DNA of 64,000 nt from an uncultured delta proteobacterium (GTDB taxonomy: Bacteria; Desulfobacterota; Binatia; UBA9968): contig CAVYDL010000006.1 in NCBI GenBank assembly GCA_963767275.1, positions 941,867 to 1,005,866 on the forward strand, in the 5' to 3' direction. A program made the translations under genes and the position numbers. The notes below the pieces were generated by a model. It did no database searches. It worked only from the letters and a program-made list of their open reading frames with translations, and had not been told where the DNA came from. The first letter of the stretch is position 1, and every line of letters begins with the position of its first letter. Below, piece by piece: positions 8,977 through 63,706 of the stretch.

Positions 8977-10538
8977 AATCGGTCCGGGGGAAGATCGCTA
9001 AGGCAGCCGGCCTGCTTCTGGTGTTGCAAGTCTTTGAGCAGGCCACCGGCCTGATGAAACAGATGGTGATCGCCGCTCAGTTCGGAACTTCGGAAACGAT
9101 GGACGGCTATCTGATAGCGACGACCATTGTCGGGCTTATTCTTCTCTGGGTCGGCCTGCCGATCCGCCAGACTCTGATCCCCATGTTCCGCCACGATCTC
9201 GCGAAGCGGGGTGAACGAGCGGCTTGGGCCAATGCCAGCGTTCTCTTCAATAACCTACTGCTGGTTCTTATCGGTATCGTTCTCTTGGGGACACTAATAG
9301 CTCCTTACCTGGTGAGCATCCTGGCTCCCGGTTTCGATGAGAGCGCGCTGTCCTTGGCCACTTCTTTGGCCCGGATCACGATGGCCAGTGTGGTCTTTGT
9401 CGGTATGGGAAACGTGTTGTCCCAGATATTCTTTTCTTACGAAAGGTTCTTCCAGCCCGGCATCGCGGGCAGCGTGAATAACGTCGTGACGATGTTGGCA
9501 CTGCTCGCTTTAGGTGGCACGTACGGCATCTATGGTCTGGCCGTCGCCGTCGTGATAGGCGGCGGTTTTCACTTCGTGCTTCAGCTGCCGATTCTGTGGG
9601 AGAAGCGGAAATTTTATTCTGCCACGGTGAACTTTCGCCATCCGCACATGGTCGAGACCGGCAAGCTGAGCTTGCCGCTGCTGATTTCCACTGGCGGTAA
9701 CGAGTTGGCGAGAGTTACCGATCGGATCTTTGCCTCGCTCTTGGCTGCCGGAAGCCTCTCGGCCCTTGCGTTTGCCCATAGGCCAATCACGGTCCTGATC
9801 GAATTTCTAATCCACCCGCTTAATACAGCGACTTTGCCTCACTTCGCCAAGCTCAGTGCCGAGGGAGATTTTCGCACGCTGTCCCGCCAGCTCTTTTACT
9901 ATGTTCGTCTTATTGCTTTCTTTACGCTTCCCATCGCCGTCGGCCTCATGCTGCTGGCGGAGGACGCCGTCAGAACGCTCTATGGACGGGGGGCCTTTGA
10001 TGAAGCCTCGGTCCGCTTAACCGGTCAGGCGCTGTTCTTCTATGCGATCGGAGTGCCGGCCCAGGCGATAATGAGAATCTTCAGAAATGCTTTTTTTAAT
10101 CTGAAAGATACCTGGACGCCGACAAAAATAGCCCTTGGTCGTATCGCGCTCAAAATCATTCTCTCTTGGATTCTGGTCCAACCGATGGCCCATCGGGGTA
10201 TCGCCTTGGCCGAGTCTCTCTCGCTGATTGCCAACGCCTTCTTTCTCTTCTGCTTTCTGCCAAGGGAACTGAAGGGCAAAGAGGGATGGAAGACTCTGGC
10301 GGCGTTCGGGCAGACTCTGGCAGGCTGCGTCGTCATGGGAACCGTGGTGTACTTCGCGCAGGAGAAGCTAAACGGAATGATCAGTCTACCGCTGGAGCTC
10401 GTTACCTTGGTCATGCTGGGCGCAGCGACTTATGGCGCTACCGCGCTCCTCTTCCAGGCGGAGGTGAGCCACTCGATCCTAAAGACGGTGACGGAGTTGG
10501 GCGGAAAATACCTCAGAGGAGCTGCCAAAACAACATGA
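8973..10538 (+). CDS. MurJ/MviN-family lipid-linked oligosaccharide flippase (MOP superfamily)
   Basis: 521 aa and polytopic. The N-terminal pattern 'GLMKQMVIAAQFGTSETMDGYLIATTI' fits the MurJ N-terminal consensus (G..R....A..fG.s...DAf..A). Its start overlaps the GT4 stop (ATGA). Confidence 0.75.
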   Translation: MKSVRGKIAKAAGLLLVLQVFEQATGLMKQMVIAAQFGTSETMDGYLIATTIVGLILLWVGLPIRQTLIPMFRHDLAKRGERAAWANASVLFNNLLLVLIGIVLLGTLIAPYLVSILAPGFDESALSLATSLARITMASVVFVGMGNVLSQIFFSYERFFQPGIAGSVNNVVTMLALLALGGTYGIYGLAVAVVIGGGFHFVLQLPILWEKRKFYSATVNFRHPHMVETGKLSLPLLISTGGNELARVTDRIFASLLAAGSLSALAFAHRPITVLIEFLIHPLNTATLPHFAKLSAEGDFRTLSRQLFYYVRLIAFFTLPIAVGLMLLAEDAVRTLYGRGAFDEASVRLTGQALFFYAIGVPAQAIMRIFRNAFFNLKDTWTPTKIALGRIALKIILSWILVQPMAHRGIALAESLSLIANAFFLFCFLPRELKGKEGWKTLAAFGQTLAGCVVMGTVVYFAQEKLNGMISLPLELVTLVMLGAATYGATALLFQAEVSHSILKTVTELGGKYLRGAAKTT

Positions 10539-11349
10539 TGCATACAACACTTCCGATCCAGACGCTGGTGCCTCAGCTCGTTACCCTCGCTCACCGAGCG
10601 GGCGAAGCAGTCATGAAGTTTTATTCTCAAGACGAGTTGGGGACAACTTATAAAGAATTTGACTCGCCGCTGACCTGCGCGGACATCGCGTCCCATGATT
10701 TGATTGTGGAACAACTGCAAGCGCTGACTCCAACCGTGCCGGTATTGTCAGAAGAGTCCAAGGCGGTCCCCTATCAAGTGCGACAGGCATGGCGGACATT
10801 CTGGCTAGTAGACCCACTGGATGGGACCAAAGAATTCATCAAACGCAATGGCGAATTTACCGTTAACATCGCGCTCATCGAGGACGGGCGGCCGGTTTTT
10901 GGTGTCGTGCATGCTCCAGCCATGGAGGTGACTTATCTTGGCCGCTCACGGAATCGGCGCGTTCAAGCAAACCGCTCAGGAGTCAAAACGGATTCCAATC
11001 GCCGTCAGGCAATGCGAGAGCACGAGGCTTAAGGTAGTCGTCGAGCCGTTCACATGCGGGCGATGAGCTCGAAAGATTTCTCGATAAGATCGCGCCTGCT
11101 GGAGTGCTCAGTATCGGTAGCTCGCTAAAAATCTGTCTGGTCGCGGAGGGCGAAGCGCATCTTTACCCACGCCTCGGGCCAACCATGGAGTGGGACACCG
11201 CTGCCGCCCAGTGCGTCGTTGAAATGGCGGGCGGGGCGATCGCCGATCTGGCGAGGGCAAACTCTGAGTATACAATAAGCCCGATTTGGCACAATCCCCA
11301 CTTCATCGTCAGCGGCACTCCCGACCTTTCCCTGGCAGAGTTATTTTGA
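10535..11349 (+). pseudogene. cysQ: 3'(2'),5'-bisphosphate nucleotidase CysQ (PAP phosphatase, inositol-monophosphatase fold), disrupted by two frameshifts
   Basis: 'WLVDPLDGTKEF' is the IMPase motif. The reading continues in a second frame ('LAAHGIGAFKQTAQESKRIPIAVRQCESTRLKVVV') and then a third ('SRSHAGDELERFLDKIAPAGVLSIGSSLKICLVAEGEAHLYPRLGPTMEWDTAAAQCVV'). Confidence 0.7.
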
Positions 11350-11483
11350 GAACAGGGAGTGTGCCGCTGGACGGTGATAAACATGGTGTTGTGATCGCGC
11401 TGTTCAAGGATGCGAGACGATGAAATCAGTATATCAACCCTAAACTACTCCGCACTTGCAGAAGCGTCCATGCGGCTTACCGA

Positions 11484-12283
11484 ATGGCGACTGCGCCGCT
11501 CCGGGTCATGCCGGATTTCCTCTTTATCGGCGGCAACCGATGCGGCACGCCGACGCTCTATGAATACCTGTGCGGCCATCCATGCTTCGCGCCGTCGGTG
11601 CGAAGCGAGAAGTGCATGTATTTCGATCTGCACTTCGCAAAAGGCGTGAACTGGTACAAAGGCATTTTCCGTCGGTCGGATTACAAATACTCCGTCACAC
11701 AATTACAGCAGGAAGAAGTTTTTACCGGAGAGGCAACGACCTATTACATATTTCACCCCATGCCCCCCGGCAGAATCTAGCAAACGTGCCGAAGATCAAG
11801 CTCATCCGCTCTTGCGCAATCCCGTCGACCGCGCCTACGCGCAGTATCATCAGAAAGTCAGGAGAGGTAACGAGCCGCTCTCATTTGAAGACGCGATAGA
11901 CGCGGAGCCTGAGAGACTGCAAGGCGAGAGGGAAAAAATGCTGGCCAATGAACCCTATAACAGCTTCAACTACCGTCGACTATTCCTATCTCACCAGGGG
12001 CGTCTATGTGGATCAGACTCGCGCACTGGATGAATCTGTTCCCAAAGAACAGCTGCTGGTCATGTGCAGCGAAGACTTGCGCAGGGAGCCGAGCCGGGTT
12101 TTGCAAGAGGTTCTACAGTTCCTCGAGCTGCCGGCGTGGGAGCCGCAGGCGCAGAACAATTATGGTCAAGCCGAGTATCCGAAGATGGATGCTGCCGTGC
12201 GGGCACGTCTCATCGAATACTTCCAACCGCACAACCGGCGTTTACATGATTTCTTAGGTCGGGATTTCGGCTGGGACCGGTGA
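11484..12283 (+). pseudogene. Sulfotransferase (subtype A), split over three frames. It is a paralog of the intact gene at 13237-14151.
   Basis: 5'-PSB 'PDFLFIGGNRCGTPTL' and 3'-PB 'RNPVDRAYAQY' lie in different frames. One shift is at a C6 run (11763-11768), another is near 11807-11812, and a third is near 11950-12030. The order of pieces matches the intact paralog. Confidence 0.7.
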
Positions 12284-12352
12284 TCCATGGAGCGCGCAGT
12301 GGCTCACCGCAGTGCTCCTCAGTATAGGGATGATTCAACAGGAGTTACAAGA

Positions 12353-13227
12353 ATGAGGCGACCGGATTTTTTCATCGTCGGCGCACCCAAGTGCGGCACG
12401 ACCGCAATGATCGATTACCTGAAACAACACCCGGAGGTCTTCGTCCCGGACCGCAAAGAGCTTGACTTCTTTGGCAGGGACCTTGTGTTTAAAGGCCATC
12501 GACTCACCGAAGAAGAGTATCTGGATTTTTTTTCGCGGGCGACGGCGGAAAAGCGCGCCGGCGAAGGCTCGGTATGGTATCTGCACTCAAAAACCGCGGC
12601 ATTAGAGATCAAGGATTTTTCCCCGGCGCGCGGATCATAATCATGCTGCGCAATCCTCTCGACATGATGTATTCATTCCATAGCCAGCGTCTTTATAACG
12701 GCAACGAGGATATCGAAAATTTTTCAGCGGCATTGGATGCCGAGGCCGAGCGCAGACGAGGATTGCGCCTGCCCAAGGGCGCGTCGGATGTTTTCGGTTG
12801 GTGTTACCGCGACGTGGCGACTTATACCAAACAGGTCCAAAGATACTTTAACACCTTCGGCAAGGAACATGTTCGCGTCATTATTTACGACGATTTCGCC
12901 AAGGATGCCGGCCTCGCGTATCGAGAAACCTGCCAATTCCTCGATATAGACTCGGACTTTCAACCGGATCTCCGGATCATCAACACCAGGAAGCAGGTAC
13001 GAAGCAAAGCGTTGCGAGAATTCCTGCGACGCCCGCATCCTGCTTCGGGCTGGCTTTTTCGAGCGATAGGACTCCGCCCGGATCGCAACGGGGGATACAA
13101 AGGCTGGCTCAGGCGGTTAAACAGTAGTGACAATTCCCTTCGCCCGATGAATCCGGTATTGAGAAAACAACTGCAACGGGAATTTGCTCCTGAAGTCCGG
13201 CAGCTAAGCGCATTTACTCGGACGTGA
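12353..13227 (+). CDS. Sulfotransferase (subtype B), with a single frameshift near 12620-12635 in a GCGCGCG tract
   Basis: 'RRPDFFIVGAPKCGTTAM' is the PAPS 5'-phosphosulfate loop; '...IIIMLRNPLDMMYS' is the 3'-PB. It is collinear with the intact paralog at 38159-39052. An AGGAG RBS precedes the start. Confidence 0.7.
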
Positions 13228-16305: not shown

Positions 16306-17801
16306 ATGAACTCAATGAGTCAGGTGAAAATCATCGCTACGATCGGTCCAGGCAGCAACACCGCGGCGGCGCTCACGTGCCCTGCTAGAAGCCGGAGCCA
16401 ACGTGGCTCGTCTCAACGGCTCGCACGCCGACTTGGAGTGGCATGCCGCCACGATCAAATTGCTGCGCAAGGTGGTGCCGCAGATGCCGATCCTGCTCGA
16501 TATCCCCGGACGCAAGATCCGCACCGGAGCTTTGGAGCACGAGCCCTGCTTCCAAGCGGGTGATTTTCTGGTGCTGACTACGTCTGCCGATCACAACGGC
16601 CATTTTAAGGTGCCGGTATCGTATCCGAACCTGCACGAAGACCTCTCACCGGGGGACACAATCCTGGCTGACGATGGCCAGTTGCGGTTCACCGTCGAAT
16701 CGGTGGTGGATCGGGATATCGTCTGCAGAGCGGAGGCGGCTGGAACCCTGCGCAGCAGAAAGGGCATCAACTGCCCGGGCGTCACACTTGCGCACGGCGA
16801 TGGTGACGGAACGGGACCGGAGCATGCTGGCCTTCGCCAAAGAACACGGCGTTGATTTTGTCGGCATCAGTTTCGTCGAAAGCGCGGATCACGTCAATGC
16901 GATTCGCGCTGTGATCGATGACGCGAGCCCTCGAATTGTCGCCAAGATCGAAACTCCGGATGCGCTGGAACACTTGGCAGATATCATCGCCGTGTCCGAC
17001 GCGATCATGATCGATCGCGGCGACTTGGCCGTTGAAACCAATCTTTATGGTATCGCGCTGTTGCAAAAGCAGATACTGACCGCTGCCCGCCAGGCCAACA
17101 AGCCGGCTATCGTCGCCACCGAGATGCTGCATTCCATGATAGCGAGCCCGGTGCCGACAAAAGCCGAAGTGACCGACATAACCAATGCCGTCCTCGACGG
17201 CGCCGCGGCGGTGATGCTTTCAGGCGAAACAGCCGTCGGTCAGTTCCCCGCTGCAGCCGTGGCGACGATGCGTCAGATAGCCGACAGAGCTTCGGCCCAT
17301 TTACAATCGACGTTGGACCAGAATGGCAGCCGGGAAGAGTTCAGCGTGCCGCAAGCGGTAGGGGATGCGATCGCTCTCATATGCCGGCGCCTGCCCGTGA
17401 CCAAGATCGTCGCGATTACGATCGCCGGCTACGCCGCGCGCACGGTGGCCATGCACATGCCGCGTCAACCTATCCTCGCCGTCAGCAATGATCCCATCGC
17501 CGCTCGCAGTTTTCACATGCTGCCCGGAACGGAAGGCATCTACGTGGATATTCCGTTCGTGCGAACCAGCACCGACCATATTCCCAAATGCTTGGAGGAA
17601 TTATGGCGGAGCGGAAAATTACTGGACGAGGATCTCGTGTTGGTGACGTCGGTCGGATACCCGAGGTCGGGCAATCGGATGAACCTGATTCAAACGCATA
17701 ACATTGCCGATCTGCGGGAGAGCCTGGGATGGCTATCGATGCCGCAGGGCTCGGTCGGTCCGGGCCTCACCATGATGGCGGCTCCTGCGGACCCGATATG
17801 A
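16306..17801 (+). CDS. pyk: Pyruvate kinase, with two apparent frameshifts (~16370 at a CCC run, ~16800)
   Basis: 'KIIATIGPGSNTAAAL' continues in the next frame as 'LLEAGANVARLNGSHADLEWH', and then as 'MLAFAKEHGVDFVGISFVESADHV...IVAKIETPDALEHL...MIDRGDLAVE'. These are classic PK motifs. Confidence 0.7.
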
Positions 17802-24255: not shown

Positions 24256-25466
24256 ATGAAAATTACCCACGTGATCAGCGGACTCACCGCCGGCGGCGCG
24301 CAAACGATGCTCTATAAGCTACTCTCGCAGATGGACCGAACAGCTTTTACCGCTGAAGTCATACCACTCGCGGACGTCGGATCCCTAGACAAAAAAATCC
24401 GGGCGCTAGGGGTTCCGGTTCGGACCCTCGGGATGCGCCCGGGAGTACCGAACCCCTGGGGAGTTCATAGACTTGCCCGCTGGCTGCGGCGCGATCCCCC
24501 CGACCTCATTCAAACCTGGATGTACCACGCCGACCTCATTGGCGGCCTCGCGGCTAAGTTAGCCGGCGGCATTCCGGTAGCCTGGAACATTCGCCACAGT
24601 GATCTCGATGCCAATGCGAACAAGCGCAGTACTTTTTGGACCATCAAAGCTTGTGCGGGGTTTCCCGCTGGCTGCCAACCCGGATCGTCTGCTGCGCGGA
24701 ACTCGCTCGCCGAGCGCATACTGAATTCGGCTATTTAGGGGAGAAAATTGTCGTCATTCCCAACGGTTTTGACCTGAAGGCATTCCGACCGGACCCCGCG
24801 GCGCGGCTATCTGTGCGTCAAGAGCTGGGCATCGCCAAAGACGCCTTGATCATTGGATTGGTGGGTCGCTTTCACCCGCTAAAGGATCACGGCAATTTCA
24901 TTGACGCCGCCGCCCGGCTCCAAAGCGAATATCCGGAGATTCACTTCTTACTCTGCGGCGACGATGTGACGCCTGAAAACACGGCGCTTGGCCAATGGAT
25001 CGCAGCGCGCGGCATCGGCGCGCGCTGTCATCTTCTAGGGCCACGAGATGATATTCCAAGAATCAATGCCGCGCTCGATATTGCGTGCTCTTCTTCCTAC
25101 ACGGAAGGGTTTTCCAATGTCATCGGCGAAGCAATGTCTTGCGGTGTGCCTTGTGCCGTGACCGATGTCGGGGATTCGGCGTTGATCGTGGGCGATACGG
25201 GCAGGGTTGTACCACCCAAAAATCCGCGAGCTTTGGCCGATGCGTGGGGCGAATTAATCAAGATGTGTCCGGAGAAAAGATCTCAACTAGGCGCAGCAGC
25301 ACGCCGCCGCATTGGTGAGAAGTTCAGCTTACAGGCGATTGCTCAGAGATATGAGGAATTATACGAAGCGATTGCCGCCCATGCCCCCAACGTCATTACC
25401 GACACCCTGTCAATGGATAAATCCGGGCGCAACGGGCGCATCGATGAAAGCAATAATGCCCGCTAA
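24256..25466 (+). CDS. GT4 family glycosyltransferase, with a frameshift near 24650-24700
   Basis: 'MKITHVISGLTAGGAQTM' (N-domain) and 'EGFSNVIGEAMSCGVPCAVTDVGDSALIVGDTGRVVPP' (C-domain) lie in two frames. Confidence 0.7.
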
Positions 25467-39575: not shown

Positions 39576-39591
39576 TGGCACTGCCCTTGCA
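39576..39591 (+). promoter_or_regulatory. Candidate sigma-54 (-24/-12) promoter, TGGCACtgcccTTGCA
   Basis: It matches the consensus TGGCACG-N4-TTGCW at 11 of 12 defined positions, with the GG/GC spacing exact. It sits 17 nt upstream of the 39608 ATG. Confidence 0.4.
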
Positions 39592-46040: not shown

Positions 46041-47735
46041 ATGAAAAGAGATCCTTCGCGACTGGCTGGTCGGATTTTCGATATTGCTGTCGTCGGCGGG
46101 GGAATCTATGGGATGAGCGTGGCGAGAGACGCCGCCTTAAGAGGACTGACGGTAAGCTTGGTCGAGCAAGGGGACTTCGGCAATGCCGCTTCCTCGAATC
46201 ATCACAAGATCATCCATGGAGGGTTTCGATATCTGCAACACGCGGACTTTTCAAGGATGCGCGAATCAATTAAGGAGCGCAACATTCTTATGCGAATGGC
46301 TCCGCATCTCGTCCACCCATTACCGTGCGTCATACCGACTTACGGTCACCGTCTAAAAGAAAAACTCATGTTTGCGGTGGCGCTGAAGTTAAATGATTTG
46401 ATCAGCTTTGATCGCAATCGAAAGCTGCGAGAGGACCAAAAAATCCCCGCTGGACGTATTTTATCAACGGCGCAATGTCTGCAGCTTTGCCCCAATATCG
46501 ATCAACGCGGGTTGAGTGGAGGCGCACTTTTTTTCGACGCCCAGGTCGACAACCCCGACCGTCTCAACCTATCGGTTTTGTTTTCCGCCGCAGCGGCCGG
46601 GGCGGACTTCGCAAATTACGTGGAGATGACTGAATTCCTGCGAGACGGTTCTGCGGTTTCAGGCATACGGGTTAGGGATACGCTTTCGGGAGCAGAGTTT
46701 GCGATTCGCGCTCGGGTTGTTGTCAATTGCACCGGTCCTAGGCCGGAGCAGGTTCTCCACTTGCTCGGACGGCCGCCGAGCGAAATACCTACTAAGCTGT
46801 TGAAAGCGATAGTACTGGTAACGCGGCCTGTAGTGGGCAATACAGCGGTTGGCATACGCAGTACATCGCCCTATACCGATCGAGACGCCGTGGTTCAAAA
46901 AGGGTACAGGTTCTTTTTTATCACACCCTGGCGACATAAGTCGCTGGTCGGCACGTTTGAAACCCCGTACAAAGCGGATCGCGACGGCCGGGATGTAAGT
47001 GAAAACGAGATTACGGATTTCCTCCGACAAATCAACGATGCTTTCTCGGGTGCCCGCCTTCAACGGGAGGACGTGGTTGGAGTTTTGAGCGGCCTTGTCC
47101 CCGCTGCTGACGCGGCGGAGCAAAATAGTCACGCGCAACGCCAGAATCACTGGACCATACGAGATCACGGAGCCGAAGACGGTATACCAGGGCTGCTATC
47201 TGTTGTCGGAGTGAAATATACGACGGCGAGAGGCATTGCCGAGAGAACCGTCAACCTGGTGTTAACGAAACTTGGCCGCAAGTTTATAAGATCTCGAACT
47301 GCGGAAACTCCAGTGGCCGGGGCCGTCATCAATGGCTGGGACGAATTTGCCGATCGAGCGGCAAAAGAACGCACTAGGCGGATCAGCACGGAGACGCTTA
47401 GGCATTTGTTGCAGTGCTACGGATCTGAATACCGCAATATTCTGCGCTATTGCGACGAAGATTCGCGCTGGAGCCGGTCTATCAGCAGTGACGCGCCGAC
47501 GATACGGGCTGAAGTGCTCCATGGCATACGGTCCGAGATGGCTCGCAAACTGAGCGATATCATTTTCCGACGCACGGAGTTAGGGACGGCGGGGCATCCA
47601 GGAGATGCATGCCTGCACGCGTCCGCGGAAATCATGCGCGCTGAATTGAACTGGAACAAAGCAACCATGTTTCGAGAGTTGGATGAAGTTCAGCAGGGAT
47701 TTTCTTACGAAAGACAACCAAGCCGTGCAGGTTGA
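46041..47735 (+). CDS. FAD-dependent oxidoreductase, glycerol-3-phosphate dehydrogenase (GlpD/GlpA)-like
   Basis: 'DIAVVGGGIYGMSVARDAALRGLTVSLVEQGDFGNAASSNHHKIIHGGFRYL' matches the GlpD N-terminal FAD-binding region closely. Confidence 0.75.
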   Translation: MKRDPSRLAGRIFDIAVVGGGIYGMSVARDAALRGLTVSLVEQGDFGNAASSNHHKIIHGGFRYLQHADFSRMRESIKERNILMRMAPHLVHPLPCVIPTYGHRLKEKLMFAVALKLNDLISFDRNRKLREDQKIPAGRILSTAQCLQLCPNIDQRGLSGGALFFDAQVDNPDRLNLSVLFSAAAAGADFANYVEMTEFLRDGSAVSGIRVRDTLSGAEFAIRARVVVNCTGPRPEQVLHLLGRPPSEIPTKLLKAIVLVTRPVVGNTAVGIRSTSPYTDRDAVVQKGYRFFFITPWRHKSLVGTFETPYKADRDGRDVSENEITDFLRQINDAFSGARLQREDVVGVLSGLVPAADAAEQNSHAQRQNHWTIRDHGAEDGIPGLLSVVGVKYTTARGIAERTVNLVLTKLGRKFIRSRTAETPVAGAVINGWDEFADRAAKERTRRISTETLRHLLQCYGSEYRNILRYCDEDSRWSRSISSDAPTIRAEVLHGIRSEMARKLSDIIFRRTELGTAGHPGDACLHASAEIMRAELNWNKATMFRELDEVQQGFSYERQPSRAG

Positions 47736-47748
47736 CAATCTGAAAATT

Positions 47749-49024
47749 CTGATGATCGCACCCACGCCATTTTTTGCGGACCGTGGGTGTCACATCCGTA
47801 TTCTAGGCGAAGCCAAGGCGCTGATTAACTTAGGCCACGAATTAATCCTGTGTACGTATTTCCTCGGTCGGGATATCGAAGGTGTCCGGGTTGTGCGTAC
47901 CTTGTCCGTTCCGTGGTACAACAAGCTGTCTGCCGGACCATCATGGCATAAGTTCTACATCGATTTGTTACTGTTGGGAAAAGTCGTCTCGGTGTGCCGT
48001 ACGTTTCGGCCCCATGTCATTCACGCGCATCTACATGAGGGAGTCGTTATCGGCAAGATCGCAAGTCTGCTTTTTGGGATTCCGCTGGTTGCGGATCTTC
48101 AGGGCGGCCTGACCGATGAGCTCCTGGCTCACAGGTTCATCCCAGAGGTCCCCATCTTGGTAAAGCTCGTCCGCTGGATTGAGAAAAAGATCGACCAGAT
48201 GCCGATACACCTGATTGTCAGCTCCAAGCAAACTGCCCAGAGCTGCGTCGATACCTATGGTATCTCTGGAGACCGGGTCAGTTCGGTGACCGACGGCGTC
48301 GATCTCGATATTTTTTCGCCGCGCGAAAAAGATTTGGTTCTGCAAGCGGCTCTAGGCATTCACAAAGGCGGTGGGAACGATGAATGATAGGGTGGTCATT
48401 TTCGTTGGGCTGCTTTCCCAATATCAGGGAATAGACTTGTTGCTGGAGACTATACCTATTGTGGCGCGAGAAGTACCCGAGGTGAAGTTTTTGATCGTCG
48501 GATATCCGGGTGAACAAATTTATCGGGATAGGGCGCGCGCGTTGGGAGTAGAGAGATGGACCCATTTCACCGGCAGGATTTCCTACGAAGATGTGCCGCG
48601 TTATCTGGCGTTGGCGGAGGTCGCGGTTTCTCCGAAGATTTCTACTACGGAGGCGAATTTAAAGCTGTTCACATACATGGCTATGGGACTTCCGACGGTC
48701 GTTTTTGATAATCCCATTAACCGTGAAATTCTCGATGATGTCGGAATCTATGCTAAATATGGCGACGTAGAATCGCTGGCGGCGGCATTGATCAGAGTTC
48801 TTCAAGATCGAGCATGGGGTCGCCAACTCGGTGAGCGGAGCCGCCAAAAAGCAGCGGCCAGCCATTCTTGGTTACAAGTCGGAAGACGATTGGGCGACAT
48901 CTACCATTCGATAGGCGCTTATACTGCCTCGGATCCGAAGGAGCGACACAATGGGCAAGGAAAAGGTATTAGTCACAGGGGGGGCCGGTTTCATCGGTTC
49001 CCATTTAGTAAACGAATTGGTTAG
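47749..49024 (+). CDS. GT4 family glycosyltransferase, with a frameshift near 48360-48385
   Basis: 'KILMIAPTPFFADRGCHIRIL' (N-domain) and 'VVIFVGLLSQYQGIDLL...FLIVGYPGEQ...VAVSPKISTTEANLKLFTYMAMGLPTVVFD' (C-domain) are in two frames. Confidence 0.65.
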
Positions 49025-49982: not shown

Positions 49983-50965
49983 GAATTTTGGTGACAGGTG
50001 GCACCGGGTTTGCCGGAAGCCGTCTCGTAAATCGACTATTGGAGAGAGGCCATGAAGTCCGCGTGATGGATAATCAGCGCGGCCTATTCTATCAGGAGCT
50101 TAAAGCCAAGGGCGCCGTTATCGAACTAGGAAGTGTCACGGATAAGCAGCTGGTGGACAAACTGGTGAGAGGGTGCGATGTGGTACATCATCTCGCCGCG
50201 GCGTTTAGGCAATTAAACGTCCCCAAGCGGTACTATTGGGATGTAAATGTAGAAGGAACCCGCAATGTTGTCAGTGCAGCCCTTCGATTCGAGGTAGGAA
50301 GGGTCGTTTACTGCAGCACGCAGGGGGTGCACGGCCATATAACGCAACCGCCGGGAAACGAACAGTCGCCGATAGCGCCAGAGGATTACTATCAACTGAC
50401 GAAGTACGAAGGCGAGAAAGTAGTGGCTGAATATTCGGACAGAGGGCTTAATGCCGTAACGCTTCGTCCGACCGCTATTTATGGCCCCGGAGACCCAGAA
50501 AGATTTCTTATCCTTTTTCGACTTGTGAAACGGAAGTCGTTTCTGATGTTTGGTGATGGCAAGACCTTCTATCATCCAGTGTACATCGACAACTTGGTGG
50601 ATGCATTTGAGCTCGCGGGCTCGAAAAATAGCATTCGCGGTCAAACGTATATTATTGCGGATGAGCACTATTACTCCTTAAACGACCTAGTTCAGCATAT
50701 TGCTGACGCTTTAGGAGTCTCGATCCAAATCCGGCATCTTCCATTTCTGCCACTGTGGTCCGCTGCCGTGCTATGTGAGATCGCCTGTAAACCTCTCCGC
50801 CTTAGACCGCCGCTTTTCCGCCGGCGTGTCGACTGGTTTCGGCAGGTTCGTGCCTTTAGCATCGACAAGGCTAAGGGCGAGCTAGGATACGAGCCGAAGT
50901 TGGGCTTAAGAGAAGGTTTGGCCTTAACCGCTCGCTGGTACGAGAAGCAAGGCTACCTGGCCTGA
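49979..50965 (+). CDS. NAD-dependent epimerase/dehydratase (extended SDR), second copy
   Basis: 'MRILVTGGTGFAGSRLVNRLLERGHEVRVMD' and 'YYQLTKYEGEK' (YxxxK). Its start overlaps the upstream stop as ATGA. Confidence 0.8.
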   Translation: MRILVTGGTGFAGSRLVNRLLERGHEVRVMDNQRGLFYQELKAKGAVIELGSVTDKQLVDKLVRGCDVVHHLAAAFRQLNVPKRYYWDVNVEGTRNVVSAALRFEVGRVVYCSTQGVHGHITQPPGNEQSPIAPEDYYQLTKYEGEKVVAEYSDRGLNAVTLRPTAIYGPGDPERFLILFRLVKRKSFLMFGDGKTFYHPVYIDNLVDAFELAGSKNSIRGQTYIIADEHYYSLNDLVQHIADALGVSIQIRHLPFLPLWSAAVLCEIACKPLRLRPPLFRRRVDWFRQVRAFSIDKAKGELGYEPKLGLREGLALTARWYEKQGYLA

Positions 50966-59097: not shown

Positions 59098-60966
<1,869 letters not shown>

Positions 60967-61220: not shown

Positions 61221-62012
61221 TTGGAAGACATATCGCTGCTTTTTGTAGTTCTTTTAGTTGGCGCGGGGGGACAACTTCTCGACGGAACGTTGGGAATGGG
61301 ATTCGGAGTTTTCTCCGCCTCCGCGCTGCTCGCGGCCGGGTTTCCGCCGGTTACGGTGGTAGCCACAGTAAACGCTGCAAAGCTTTTAACCGGCATCTTT
61401 TCGGGCATCGCTCACTGGAGGGCCGGCAACGTCCGTTCGGATTGGCTGCTGCCTCTGATCATACCTGGAGTCGTGGGAGGCGTGTTAGGCGCATATCTCC
61501 TGGGTTCTCTGCCGCAGGAGAATTTCCGTTTCTGGATGGCTGTGGTGTTGTTGGGAATGGGCATGATCATTTTATGCCGAACTCTTTTTCCCGCTATCTT
61601 TTCGGTTGGATCCGCGGCGGCGGGTGAGCCTCCCCGACGCTTTTCTCGCCGTTTCTACCTCGCGATAGTAGGTTTCGTCGCCGGGGCTCTCAACGCTATC
61701 AGCGGCGCTTACGGCCCCTTCGCAACTTCGGGGGTAATGCTAATCGGCAAAGCTAAGCCCGCCCGCGCCATCGGTACGGCCAACATGGCGGAGATATTTG
61801 TGGCAGGAGCCGTGATTTCCAGTTTTCTCACTGCGCGAGGGCTGCAAACCGTATCCTGGGACTTGGCGATTGCCTTGGATCTGGGGGGCGCCCTCACTGC
61901 TCCACTGGCAGCTTATGCCTGCTCGCGGCTACCTTCCAGGGTGCTTCAGCTCGGAGTCGGGATGGTCTTGATCGGTCTTAACTTGAAAGTGGTCATCGCC
62001 CAGATCGGGTGA
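61221..62012 (+). CDS. TauE/SafE (TSUP, DUF81) family anion permease, a candidate sulfate/sulfite transporter
   Basis: 263 aa with 8 TM segments. The Gly-rich repeats 'LLVGAGGQLLDGTLGMGFGVF' and 'AIVGFVAGALNAISGAYGP' are typical of TSUP. Confidence 0.75.
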   Translation: MEDISLLFVVLLVGAGGQLLDGTLGMGFGVFSASALLAAGFPPVTVVATVNAAKLLTGIFSGIAHWRAGNVRSDWLLPLIIPGVVGGVLGAYLLGSLPQENFRFWMAVVLLGMGMIILCRTLFPAIFSVGSAAAGEPPRRFSRRFYLAIVGFVAGALNAISGAYGPFATSGVMLIGKAKPARAIGTANMAEIFVAGAVISSFLTARGLQTVSWDLAIALDLGGALTAPLAAYACSRLPSRVLQLGVGMVLIGLNLKVVIAQIG

Positions 62013-62341
62013 GTCTTGCCGCTCTAAAAATTAACGTCGTTGCCAACCTATTCAAGACGCACCCCACCGAAAGGCCAACCTGCTGATTGCTCGCTTTTCT
62101 GATTGTGCGGTCACTGTAGAAAGCACAGTTCGAAGTACGCGGTTGTCTCTAGGAATGTCACCTACGTCTCGAAAACCATCTCGCTGGATAATAATCATCG
62201 GCCCGGGGCCACATAATGAAAGCTTTACATGTCGGTGACGATGTTTTGTTTCCTCGGAAATAGTCAGTTTTTTGTTTTCAAAATGGTTATTGTCGTTGAT
62301 CGAGGCGCACCGGGGCATACTTCCGCCGGATTATTCAAAGC

Positions 62342-63706
62342 ATGGGGGAGGATAAAGTGATGGAGTTGATGGCGGAGACTGTTGTTGAAAATCGAAGTAA
62401 TTCTGTTCACGAGGATTGGGAAGCAAAGATTCGTGATCGCTCCGCAAAACTCGGAGTTATTGGCTTAGGCTGCGTCGGACTGCCACTGGCCATCGAAATG
62501 GCTCGCGAGGGTTTTCAAGTGACCGGGATTGATATTAACGGCAGCAGGGCGGCATCCGTCAATGCAGGCGTATCGTATGTTTTAGACGTGCCAAGTAACG
62601 TTCTCCATGCCGCCGTTGCTAATCGGAGCCTGAGAGCGACGCAGTCATTCGCCGCGTTGGAATCGGTTGACACTATCAGCATATGTGTCCCGATGCCTTT
62701 GCGGAAATCCAAGGATCCCGATCTTTCGTACATCGTGGCCGCCGTGGAAGCCGTTCATAATCACCTTACGCCCGGAAAGTTGATCGTTATCGAGAGCACC
62801 ACATATCCTGGAACTACTCGGGAGGTTGTGCTTCCCATTTTGGAAAAATCAGGTCTCAAGGCCGGTGAAGACTTTTTCCTGGCATTCTCCCCCGATAGAG
62901 TCGATCCTGGCAATCAGACTTATACGATACGAAACATTCCGAAAATCATTGGCGGCCTGACTGCCCGTTGTACTGCCATGGCGACGCTTCTTTACCGGCA
63001 GTTTGTCGACAGCGTTATTCCGATGTCCTCTTCGGAGTCGGCAGAAATGGTTAAGCTTTTGGAAAATACTTTCAGGAGCGTCAATATCGCTTTGGTCAAC
63101 GAAATGGCTCGCATGTGCTGCCAGTTCGGTATCAACGTCTGGGAAGTCATTGACGCCGCTAAAACAAAGCCGTTTGGTTTCATGCCGTTTTATCCCGGAC
63201 CCGGCCTGGGGGGGCATAGCATTCCGATCGTTCCGGACGATCTCACATGGAAAAGTAGAATGAACGGTTTTCAACCGCGCCTGATCGAGACGGCCGCACT
63301 TGTCAATAGCCAGATGCCGGAATTTACCGTCAGCCGAGTCGCATCTGCGCTCAACCAAAAAAAGAAGAGCATAAAAGGCTCTCGCCTCCTTGCACTCGGA
63401 ATTGCCTACAAGCGGGATGTTAGCGATACGAGGGAATCGCCGGCACTCGAGGTGGCAAGAGCTCTAATAGAAAAAGGCGCGGCGCTCGAGTATTCGGATC
63501 CCTATGTACCGATGGTTTCTATAGGCGAAGAAACTCTCGTGTCGGTTCCCTTGACCGCACAACTAATTCAATCGATGGATTGCGTGTTGATATTGACGGA
63601 CCATCCCGCTTTTGACTACCCCATGATCGCAACCCATAGTGCTGTAGTAGTGGATTGCCGAAACGCGCTCAAAAATTTCTCTGGTGCAAACGTGATGCCG
63701 CTCTAA
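62342..63706 (+). CDS. Nucleotide-sugar dehydrogenase (UDP-glucose/GDP-mannose dehydrogenase family; WecC/WbpA-like UDP-N-acetylhexosamine 6-dehydrogenase). Ser stands at the catalytic Cys position.
   Basis: 'KLGVIGLGCVGLPLA' (NAD Rossmann) and 'PGPGLGGHSIPIVPDD', where the family consensus is GGHC(I/F)P. The codon is agc at ~63208-63210. Confidence 0.8.
   Translation: MGEDKVMELMAETVVENRSNSVHEDWEAKIRDRSAKLGVIGLGCVGLPLAIEMAREGFQVTGIDINGSRAASVNAGVSYVLDVPSNVLHAAVANRSLRATQSFAALESVDTISICVPMPLRKSKDPDLSYIVAAVEAVHNHLTPGKLIVIESTTYPGTTREVVLPILEKSGLKAGEDFFLAFSPDRVDPGNQTYTIRNIPKIIGGLTARCTAMATLLYRQFVDSVIPMSSSESAEMVKLLENTFRSVNIALVNEMARMCCQFGINVWEVIDAAKTKPFGFMPFYPGPGLGGHSIPIVPDDLTWKSRMNGFQPRLIETAALVNSQMPEFTVSRVASALNQKKKSIKGSRLLALGIAYKRDVSDTRESPALEVARALIEKGAALEYSDPYVPMVSIGEETLVSVPLTAQLIQSMDCVLILTDHPAFDYPMIATHSAVVVDCRNALKNFSGANVMPL

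Follow-up and report, generated by a model that had tools for sequence, protein, structure and literature searches.

The four-electron oxidation of uridine diphosphate (UDP) sugars to uronic acids by the UDP-glucose/GDP-mannose dehydrogenase family depends on a set of strictly conserved residues. A survey of 229 members found 18 that are invariant, including the Rossmann glycines and the catalytic Cys and Asp (PMC4794789). The Cys acts as the nucleophile and is deprotonated by a water held by the Asp, and already the first oxidation is massively disrupted in D280A; hydrolysis of the thioester has Glu161 as its base, with a 610-fold slowdown in E161Q, and oxidation of the alcohol has Lys220 (PMC3265891). 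Tyr10 of SpUDPGDH has been assigned to thioester hydrolysis, and Thr83 contacts the nicotinamide ribose (PMC4794789). Replacement of the Cys itself has also been characterised. [quoted passage not shown] Single mutations of these residues in human UGDH lower activity by 600-fold to more than 10,000-fold (PMC3129169, PMC3265891). Here we describe a natural member of this family, encoded in a stretch of DNA from an uncultured delta proteobacterium (64 kb, hereafter the window), that carries Ser at the catalytic Cys column and changes at four further catalytic positions. Our favoured reading, to which we give a probability of about 0.5, is that this protein would have lost the four-electron reaction of its family and been retained for a ligand-binding, non-catalytic role.

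The gene lies at the end of the window, and all residue numbers given here follow the 454-aa frame:

62342..63706, + strand: longest open reading frame (ORF), 454 aa, the basis of residue numbering
62360..63706, + strand: nucleotide-sugar dehydrogenase homolog gene, 448 aa from ATG 62360, assigned with Pfam and TIGR03026
62347..62351, + strand: GGAGG ribosome-binding site, 8 nt 5' of ATG 62360, read from the sequence

Translation probably begins at ATG 62360 rather than at 62342, because the 448-aa form is the one called on public contigs (for example ENA ERZ25039516 contig_213, 2.35 Mb long, with part of which the window is identical) and shared by nearly all homologs, and because of the position of the GGAGG. 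Architecture and profile score place the product in the UDP-glucose/GDP-mannose dehydrogenase family. Pfam recovers each of the three family domains (PF03721 UDPG_MGDP_dh_N, 1.5e-39; PF00984, central, 4.6e-29; PF03720, C-terminal, 9.9e-21), together with an NAD_binding_2 match, and the TIGR03026 model "nucleotide sugar dehydrogenase" matches over nearly the full length with 403.7 bits against a cut-off of 189.8. Scores for the equivalog models stay below their cut-offs, at 242.5 versus 459 for NF008286 (WecC), 204.7 versus 592 for NF011729 (TviB) and 273.2 versus 750 for NF040825 (archaeal UDP-N-acetylmannosamine (UDP-ManNAc) dehydrogenase), and the same holds for the AglM and TuaD models; the substrate is therefore not assignable from the NCBIfam models. 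Among proteins of solved structure, the best matches are 4r16 (P. horikoshii, 1.2e-66) and Cap5O 3ojl (S. aureus, 2.3e-57), both UDP-ManNAc dehydrogenases, along with CalS8 4xr9, and close homologs are labelled UDP-N-acetyl-D-glucosamine dehydrogenase by JGI.

The active-site loop reads GPGLGGHSIPIVPDD around the residue that occupies the place of the nucleophile:

63218..63220, + strand: Ser293 (AGC) in the column of the catalytic nucleophile; with T for A at 63218 the codon would be TGC, Cys

In pairwise phmmer alignments Ser293 stands opposite the Cys of GGHCLP in 4r16, of GGHCLA in Cap5O and of GGSCLT in CalS8. Counting back along the Cap5O alignment, the partner of Ser293 is chain residue 268, or Cys258 once a 10-residue tag is subtracted, and Cys258 has been named as the catalytic Cys of Cap5O (PMC4794789). 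The column is Cys in 110 of the 121 sequences of a MAFFT alignment (the 120 closest database proteins plus the query) and in 80/80 species-representative genome loci at 48-73% identity; comparison with 346 canonical homologs likewise places Ser293 on the catalytic Cys. An earlier note on this DNA had proposed that a bona fide family member carries Ser at this column, which the alignments to solved structures and to homologs bear out. The base that it gave as diagnostic, 63208, lies 10 positions too early, at the third place of the Leu289 codon; the true one is the A at 63218. It had also considered that a neighbouring Cys might align into the active site, and no adjacent Cys can be slid into that column. 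As for the remaining cysteines (C44, C115, C219, C259, C260, C419 and C439), none has been kept as a replacement specific to the clade. The idea that the nucleophile had moved to Cys44 was rejected, the position being Arg in the 88% ortholog.

The substitution is found well beyond this one contig. The same AGC codon occurs in L001 (a different ENA sample, 95-97% nucleotide identity), in L002 (a MEGAHIT contig from a third sample, 88% nucleotide identity) and in L088 (a JGI metagenome, 97% amino acid identity). The 90%-identity cluster, drawn from ENA, JGI, NCBI and Logan, contains 11 distinct sequences, 11/11 of which read GGHS, and P0002 (88%) does so too. A check of related sequences for Ser, which the earlier note had proposed, thus gives 12 distinct sequences, all GGHS, and 12/12 (88-100% identical) are full-length and intact. 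A search of the database with a 67-aa query spanning the active-site loop returned only short fragments, nearly all of them GGHC, and added no member to the Ser clade. The window and L002 show 163 differences, 104 of them at third codon positions, and for this pair the ratio of nonsynonymous to synonymous substitution rates (dN/dS) is 0.14. Within the Ser clade as a whole dN/dS is 0.12-0.16 over a synonymous divergence (dS) of ~0.4, compared with 0.08-0.25 for Cys-bearing pairs of the subfamily. Since these values are as low as those of the Cys-bearing pairs, the gene is functional and not decaying; and since both lineages share the loss of the Cys to Ser and of the Asp, selection kept the protein after the active site had changed.

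To place the serine among the other conserved positions, we took as the invariant set the 60 columns in which 97% or more of the 346 canonical homologs (40-99% identity) agree. The window protein departs at only four of the 60 (T118M, E185D, C293S and D297V), and the 88% ortholog also at only four (S183C, I249T, C293S and D297A). Correspondence between residues of different proteins was drawn by motif and spacing, the Cys, the Asp and the Glu of the PER motif being the ones that were structure-aligned directly. The changed and retained positions are:

62462..62479, + strand: GLGCVG NAD-binding motif with Cys44 (TGC, 62471-62473), which replaces the near-invariant Tyr of GxGYxG
62693..62695, + strand: Met118 (ATG) of the VPTP motif, which replaces the family-invariant Thr; putative counterpart of Thr83 of SpUDPGDH by motif
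62894..62896, + strand: Asp185 (GAT) of the S-P-E-R motif, which replaces the invariant Glu; equivalent to Glu141 of SpUDPGDH and Glu161 of human UGDH
63230..63232, + strand: Val297 (GTT) at the Cys+4 position, which replaces the invariant Asp; equivalent to Asp264 of SpUDPGDH and Asp280 of human UGDH
63236..63241, + strand: Asp299-Asp300, which replace the conserved Tyr/Phe-Tyr pair after the active-site helix
63053..63067, + strand: Lys238 and Asn242 (KLLEN), retained; equivalent to Lys204 and Asn208 of SpUDPGDH and to Lys220 and Asn224 of human UGDH

The GxGYxG column is Tyr in 112/121 sequences; the query and P0001 alone have Cys there, and P0002 has Arg. Met118 is restricted to the window lineage, where S152 and T153 (matching Ser117-Thr118) are kept; motif comparison suggests that position 118 is that of Thr83. 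The PER column is Glu in 118/121, and the PDR of the window protein lies opposite the PER of 4r16, Cap5O and CalS8. Here P184 is kept, and Asp185 belongs to the window lineage, with Glu retained in the 88% ortholog. At Cys+4, Asp is found in 112/121 sequences and Val or Ala throughout the Ser clade, with SIPIV of the window protein opposite CLPKD of 4r16. Columns 299 and 300 are Tyr in 102/121 and 114/121, respectively. Set against the 18 invariant residues of the 229-member survey, the altered positions are those of Thr83, Glu141, Cys260 and Asp264, to which the 99%-conserved Tyr10 is added. Residues that serve ligand binding are kept. The Rossmann glycines G41, G43 and G46 (Gly7, Gly9 and Gly12 of SpUDPGDH) are unchanged, as are Y356, K357 (Lys320) and the C-domain Arg R364 of the UDP-diphosphate-binding region, and so are the further invariants D64, S152, N248 and N253.

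Some more distant representatives lack the Cys+4 Asp and keep the Cys (P0164, P0199, P0211, P0230, P0239, P0258, P0260 and P0267). They carry Ala, Asn, Val, Thr or Ser at Cys+4 and often read GGDC or GGSC, without His before the Cys. In this branch of the family, then, the Asp is not as universal as one would expect from the literature survey.

Loss of the Cys is recurrent. A neighbour-joining tree combined with column states, for proteins at least 60% identical to the query, gives at least five independent losses within the same orthologous subfamily:

Clade A: window, L001, L002 and L088; Ser at the Cys position, Asp to Val/Ala
Clade B: P0066, P0077, P0094, P0093 and P0114; Gln, His or Tyr at the Cys position, Asp to Gly
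Clade C: L112, L119, L120 and P0122; Arg at the Cys position, Glu185 to Lys
Long branch L118: Arg at the Cys position, Glu185 to Lys
Long branch L123: His at the Cys position, Glu185 to Gln
L006b, a second paralog in L006: Val at the Cys position, Glu185 to Gln, RESP motif lost

In clade B purifying selection persists in somewhat relaxed form, with dN/dS of 0.23-0.33. A soil-metagenome group (L104-L108 and P0116) has Lys185 in place of the invariant PER Glu and keeps the Cys; these Cys-bearing Lys185 relatives look like intermediates to clade C. The Lys185 group, with its nested Arg293 group (L112, L118-L120 and P0122), is a separate stepwise dismantling of the active site. An order of events can also be read near clade A. 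P0003 keeps both Cys and Asp and has Asn-Asp for Tyr-Tyr, L006a keeps the Cys and has Asp to Asn with Asp-Asp, and clade A has Ser, Val/Ala and Asp-Asp. As DD or ND is present in these nearest Cys-bearing relatives, the Tyr-Tyr change predates the loss of the Cys.

L006a (L006:9929-11290, + strand, 85% identical), from the closest species-representative genome, is a pseudogene. Its lesions are a 4-bp deletion matching window 63345-63348 and a TGA stop in place of CGA, 15 codons short of the usual end, and it also carries Asp297 to Asn and EST to ESM. Its dN/dS relative to the window gene is still 0.13, so the disruption is recent. A Nanopore artefact as the sole cause of the L006 frameshift was rejected, the 4-bp deletion lying outside a homopolymer and the nonsense codon being separate. 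Some 3.5 kb downstream of this disabled ortholog, at L006:14508-15866 (+ strand), stands the intact 452-aa family member L006b, which has Val where the Cys would be (GSDVAPVD), Gln instead of the PER Glu and GLCEAA in place of the C-domain RESP; it adjoins genes for an ExeA-like AAA protein, a Cache/HAMP protein and a sigma-54 regulator.

More widely, about six of the best 150 representatives of 50%-identity clusters lack the Cys, intein-bearing proteins excluded. About 25 of those 150 are 600-940 aa long and contain an intein exactly between GGH and the catalytic Cys (...GGH/C...HN/CIPxDP, slashes marking the junctions), for example P0124, P0126, P0137, P0138, P0142, P0150 and P0160, and further P0125, P0131, P0149, P0167, P0178 and P0257. 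From this position it follows that the catalytic Cys doubles as the +1 extein nucleophile.

These observations are the basis for the proposed loss of turnover with retention of ligand binding. The ancestor would have been a WbpA-like UDP-N-acetylhexosamine 6-dehydrogenase of a sulfated exopolysaccharide locus, in which the machinery of covalent catalysis would then have been dismantled by the changes of Cys to Ser, of the water-activating Asp to Val/Ala and of the P-loop Tyr to Cys/Arg, joined in the window species by PER Glu to Asp and by the nicotinamide-ribose Thr to Met. Conversion of UDP-sugar to uronic acid most likely no longer proceeds at a useful rate. The folded protein would still bind NAD(H) and UDP-sugar and would be used non-catalytically, possibly for regulation, sensing or scaffolding as a partner in the assembly of exopolysaccharide. 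Because family enzymes are obligate dimers, it might pair with an active family member, a partner that is hypothetical. The replacements in the sister clades (Gln, His, Tyr, Arg and Val) speak for the loss of a requirement and against a new catalytic residue, and within the Ser clade the former Asp position (297) varies between Val and Ala and position 44 between Cys and Arg. The suggestion of the earlier note that this is not an ordinary four-electron dehydrogenase is supported by the Ser at the catalytic column, as far as sequence can tell. On its catalytic residues the protein fails as an active UDP-GlcNAc (UDP-N-acetylglucosamine) 6-dehydrogenase and should not be annotated as one.

Several points weigh against a non-catalytic role. 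Conservation is complete at Lys238, at Asn242 and in the substrate and cofactor pockets, all of which a Cys-independent enzyme would need too, and the Ser, which could act as a nucleophile, is conserved across the whole Ser clade. A tblastn search of the window, 64 kb of the 2.35-Mb source contig, found no second family member and hence no canonical paralog to supply the activity. The AlphaFold2 model (30-sequence alignment) has a mean predicted local distance difference test score (pLDDT) of 63.7, with values below 50 in the central domain (218-308) including the active-site loop, and is too poor for inspection of the pocket. Finally, we know of no non-catalytic role for any member of the nucleotide-sugar dehydrogenase family. 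The literature searched yielded no non-catalytic, natural Cys-less or pseudoenzyme member either, an absence that is not proof of novelty.

The main rival, which we hold to be unlikely, is a Cys-independent dehydrogenase that still makes uronic acid. It could do so by Lys238-assisted alcohol oxidation followed by oxidation of the hydrated aldehyde (gem-diol), as in histidinol dehydrogenase, or through a hemiacetal/ester intermediate on Ser293, with the reshaped loop (His292, Asp299 and Asp300) providing the missing base. Conservation of Lys238, Asn242 and the NAD- and UDP-binding residues under purifying selection is what such an enzyme would show, and the fixation of Ser in 12/12 clade members fits as well. 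Because the Tyr-Tyr to Asp-Asp change came before the loss of Asp and Cys, the acidic group may have relocated. Human C276A, moreover, still produces UDP-GlcUA with 2 NADH per substrate, at its 1.8e4-fold reduced rate. Set against this, five catalytic positions are altered here and not one; the C276S ester hydrolyses very slowly, and the hydrolysis residues equivalent to Glu161 and Tyr10 are changed too. The residues that the other Cys-less clades have at the Cys position are chemically unrelated, and the former Asp position drifts between Val and Ala.

A broader form of Cys-independent chemistry, in which the Ser clade and the other Cys-less clades would all remain alive, appears to us distinctly improbable. 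In one version, a two-electron oxidation would hand a UDP-6-aldehydo-N-acetylhexosamine to tailoring enzymes; in the other, an acyl-enzyme ester on Ser293 would be resolved by ammonia from an AsnB-type amidotransferase instead of water, giving a uronamide directly.

Slightly more doubtful again is the proposal made in the earlier note, namely a two-electron dehydrogenase that releases a UDP-6-aldehydo sugar for amination or other tailoring. Two-electron chemistry with a Lys and without a Cys is that of the beta-hydroxyacid and 6-phosphogluconate-type dehydrogenases, with which the N-terminal fold is common (the NAD_binding_2 match), and the general-base Lys and the cofactor and substrate sites are kept. 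The two AsnB-type amidotransferases and the carbamoyltransferase of the cluster could act on a modified C6. The proposal started from the premise that Cys to Ser abolishes only the second oxidation, which does not hold for C276S and C260S, as these pass through two oxidations and trap the ester (PMC3129169). The 6-aldehyde product, as it was stated, fares no better: C276A yields acid without aldehyde, neither the Cys-to-Ser nor the Cys-to-Ala mutants characterised release any, and Val297, Cys44, Asp185 and Met118 mark further lost residues, loss of the Asp massively disrupting the first oxidation in human UGDH. Without trapping, formation of the aldehyde is thermodynamically unfavourable (discussion in PMC3129169), and no pyridoxal 5'-phosphate (PLP)-dependent sugar aminotransferase was seen among the annotated genes of the window. 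The heterogeneous replacements in the sister clades also speak against it. Cysteine-independent two-electron activity is thus the less likely reading.

A recently inactivated gene, en route to a pseudogene and without remaining function, is very improbable. The sister ortholog in L006 (85% identical), with its Asp to Asn change, 4-bp deletion and CGA to TGA nonsense codon, shows that such decay occurs nearby, and several other genes of the window look frameshift-split; against this, all 12 Ser-clade sequences are intact and full-length, the lineages sharing the Ser and the loss of the Asp stand at dS ~0.4 with dN/dS of 0.14-0.16 over that interval, and third-position changes prevail (104/163). 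A one-base sequencing or assembly error, which the earlier note had offered as its alternative and which the long-read-style assembly of the window (contig_213) with apparent frameshifts elsewhere might have favoured, is refuted to near certainty by AGC in four or more contigs, assembled independently and stemming from different samples and sequencing platforms, by 12 distinct protein sequences with Ser and by purifying selection.

The dehydrogenase gene is the last of a co-directional cluster of more than 60 kb that fills window 1-63706. The cluster encodes GT4 glycosyltransferases, a Bac_transf priming sugar transferase, a MurJ-like flippase, at least four sulfotransferases, several sulfatase-like proteins, methyltransferases, DUF2334/deacetylase-like proteins, two epimerase/dehydratases of the short-chain dehydrogenase/reductase (SDR) type, a NodU-like carbamoyltransferase, the two AsnB-type amidotransferases and two pectate-lyase-like proteins; by this content it is a sulfated exopolysaccharide locus. 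Two conserved neighbours stand upstream:

59191..60966, + strand: bifunctional sulfate adenylyltransferase/adenosine 5'-phosphosulfate (APS) kinase for synthesis of 3'-phosphoadenosine 5'-phosphosulfate (PAPS); Pfam PUA_2, ATP-sulfurylase and APS_kinase
61221..62012, + strand: TauE/SafE-family membrane protein (Pfam TauE, 2.2e-34), a conserved upstream neighbour

The PAPS synthase neighbour recurs in the canonical-Cys loci L097, L110, L111, L116 and L133. The order of the subfamily, namely Sat/CysC, TauE, dehydrogenase, a 168-aa protein, a PAS protein and a sigma-54 response regulator, recurs in many canonical-Cys loci, and this shared gene order makes the Ser protein a positional ortholog of the normal enzymes and not a stray paralog. 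The protein of about 168 aa has no Pfam match (for example L086:7273-7779, L097:6215-6718 and L085:11756-12100, and many other loci), and the window, L001 and L002 lack its gene. Behind an amidohydrolase gene, the Ser clade has the PAS/regulator pair in inverted orientation.

A scan for sigma-54 sites (TGGCAC-N5-TTGC) found none in the intergenic region 62013-62341, and the number across the window with at most two mismatches is that expected by chance (59 versus 60). Two perfect TGGCAC-N5-TTGC matches were seen, at 39576-39590 (+ strand) just upstream of a pectate-lyase-like gene and at 49999-50013 (+ strand) at the start of an SDR gene. Given the sigma-54 activator beside the cluster, these exact matches may be meaningful, and the chance-level count leaves only these. 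Scans of the window for sigma-70 promoters and terminators stayed at background level, and Rfam gave no match in the window.

Elsewhere in the window, breaks across several reading frames affect a CysQ/inositol-monophosphatase-like gene and at least one sulfotransferase gene (10166-12640), with no ORF longer than 120 aa in 10538-12574. The same may hold for half-length GT4 ORFs (24256-24738 and 47683-48387) and for a pyruvate-kinase fragment (16674-17801). These split ORFs reflect either real gene decay or indel errors of a long-read-style assembly.

The published survey treats the Cys and the Asp as invariant, and here is a natural lineage without either, accompanied by at least four more lineages of the same orthologous group that lack the Cys and are still kept by selection. 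Automatic annotation calls every family member an active enzyme, and predictions of uronic-acid pathways for these exopolysaccharide loci may be wrong as a result. Dead-enzyme homologs are common in biology, and a new mechanism is not demonstrated here; the scaffold would nonetheless have an uncharacterised second use, be it in non-catalytic binding or regulation or in a reaction that needs no cysteine. Natural comparators exist among Cys-bearing orthologs of 75-86% identity, such as P0007 (75%) and P0003 (86%).

Compared with known systems, the window protein resembles WbpA/TviB, WecC, Cap5O and 4r16 in its three-domain architecture, in its GGH-x-IP type of loop and in its setting in a polysaccharide cluster, and differs from them in having the Cys, the Cys+4 Asp, the P-loop Tyr, the PER Glu and the VPTP Thr replaced. 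The engineered C260S (S. pyogenes) and C276S (human) enzymes have the same substitution in the same column and are the only experimental guide to how a Ser enzyme behaves. Unlike them, the window protein is natural, fixed in its clade, under purifying selection and changed at four further catalytic positions, and given those four changes it need not reach the ester stage at which C260S and C276S stall. The closest parallel to the favoured reading of a ligand-binding protein lies with pseudoenzymes such as the pseudophosphatases and pseudokinases, although for the window protein the non-catalytic role is one that we infer only. Like them, it has lost catalytic residues and conserved the fold and the ligand-binding residues, under purifying selection and with recurrent independent loss within one family. 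Judged from its sequence, it would therefore combine the three operational marks of a pseudoenzyme, namely loss of essential residues, a retained fold and purifying selection.

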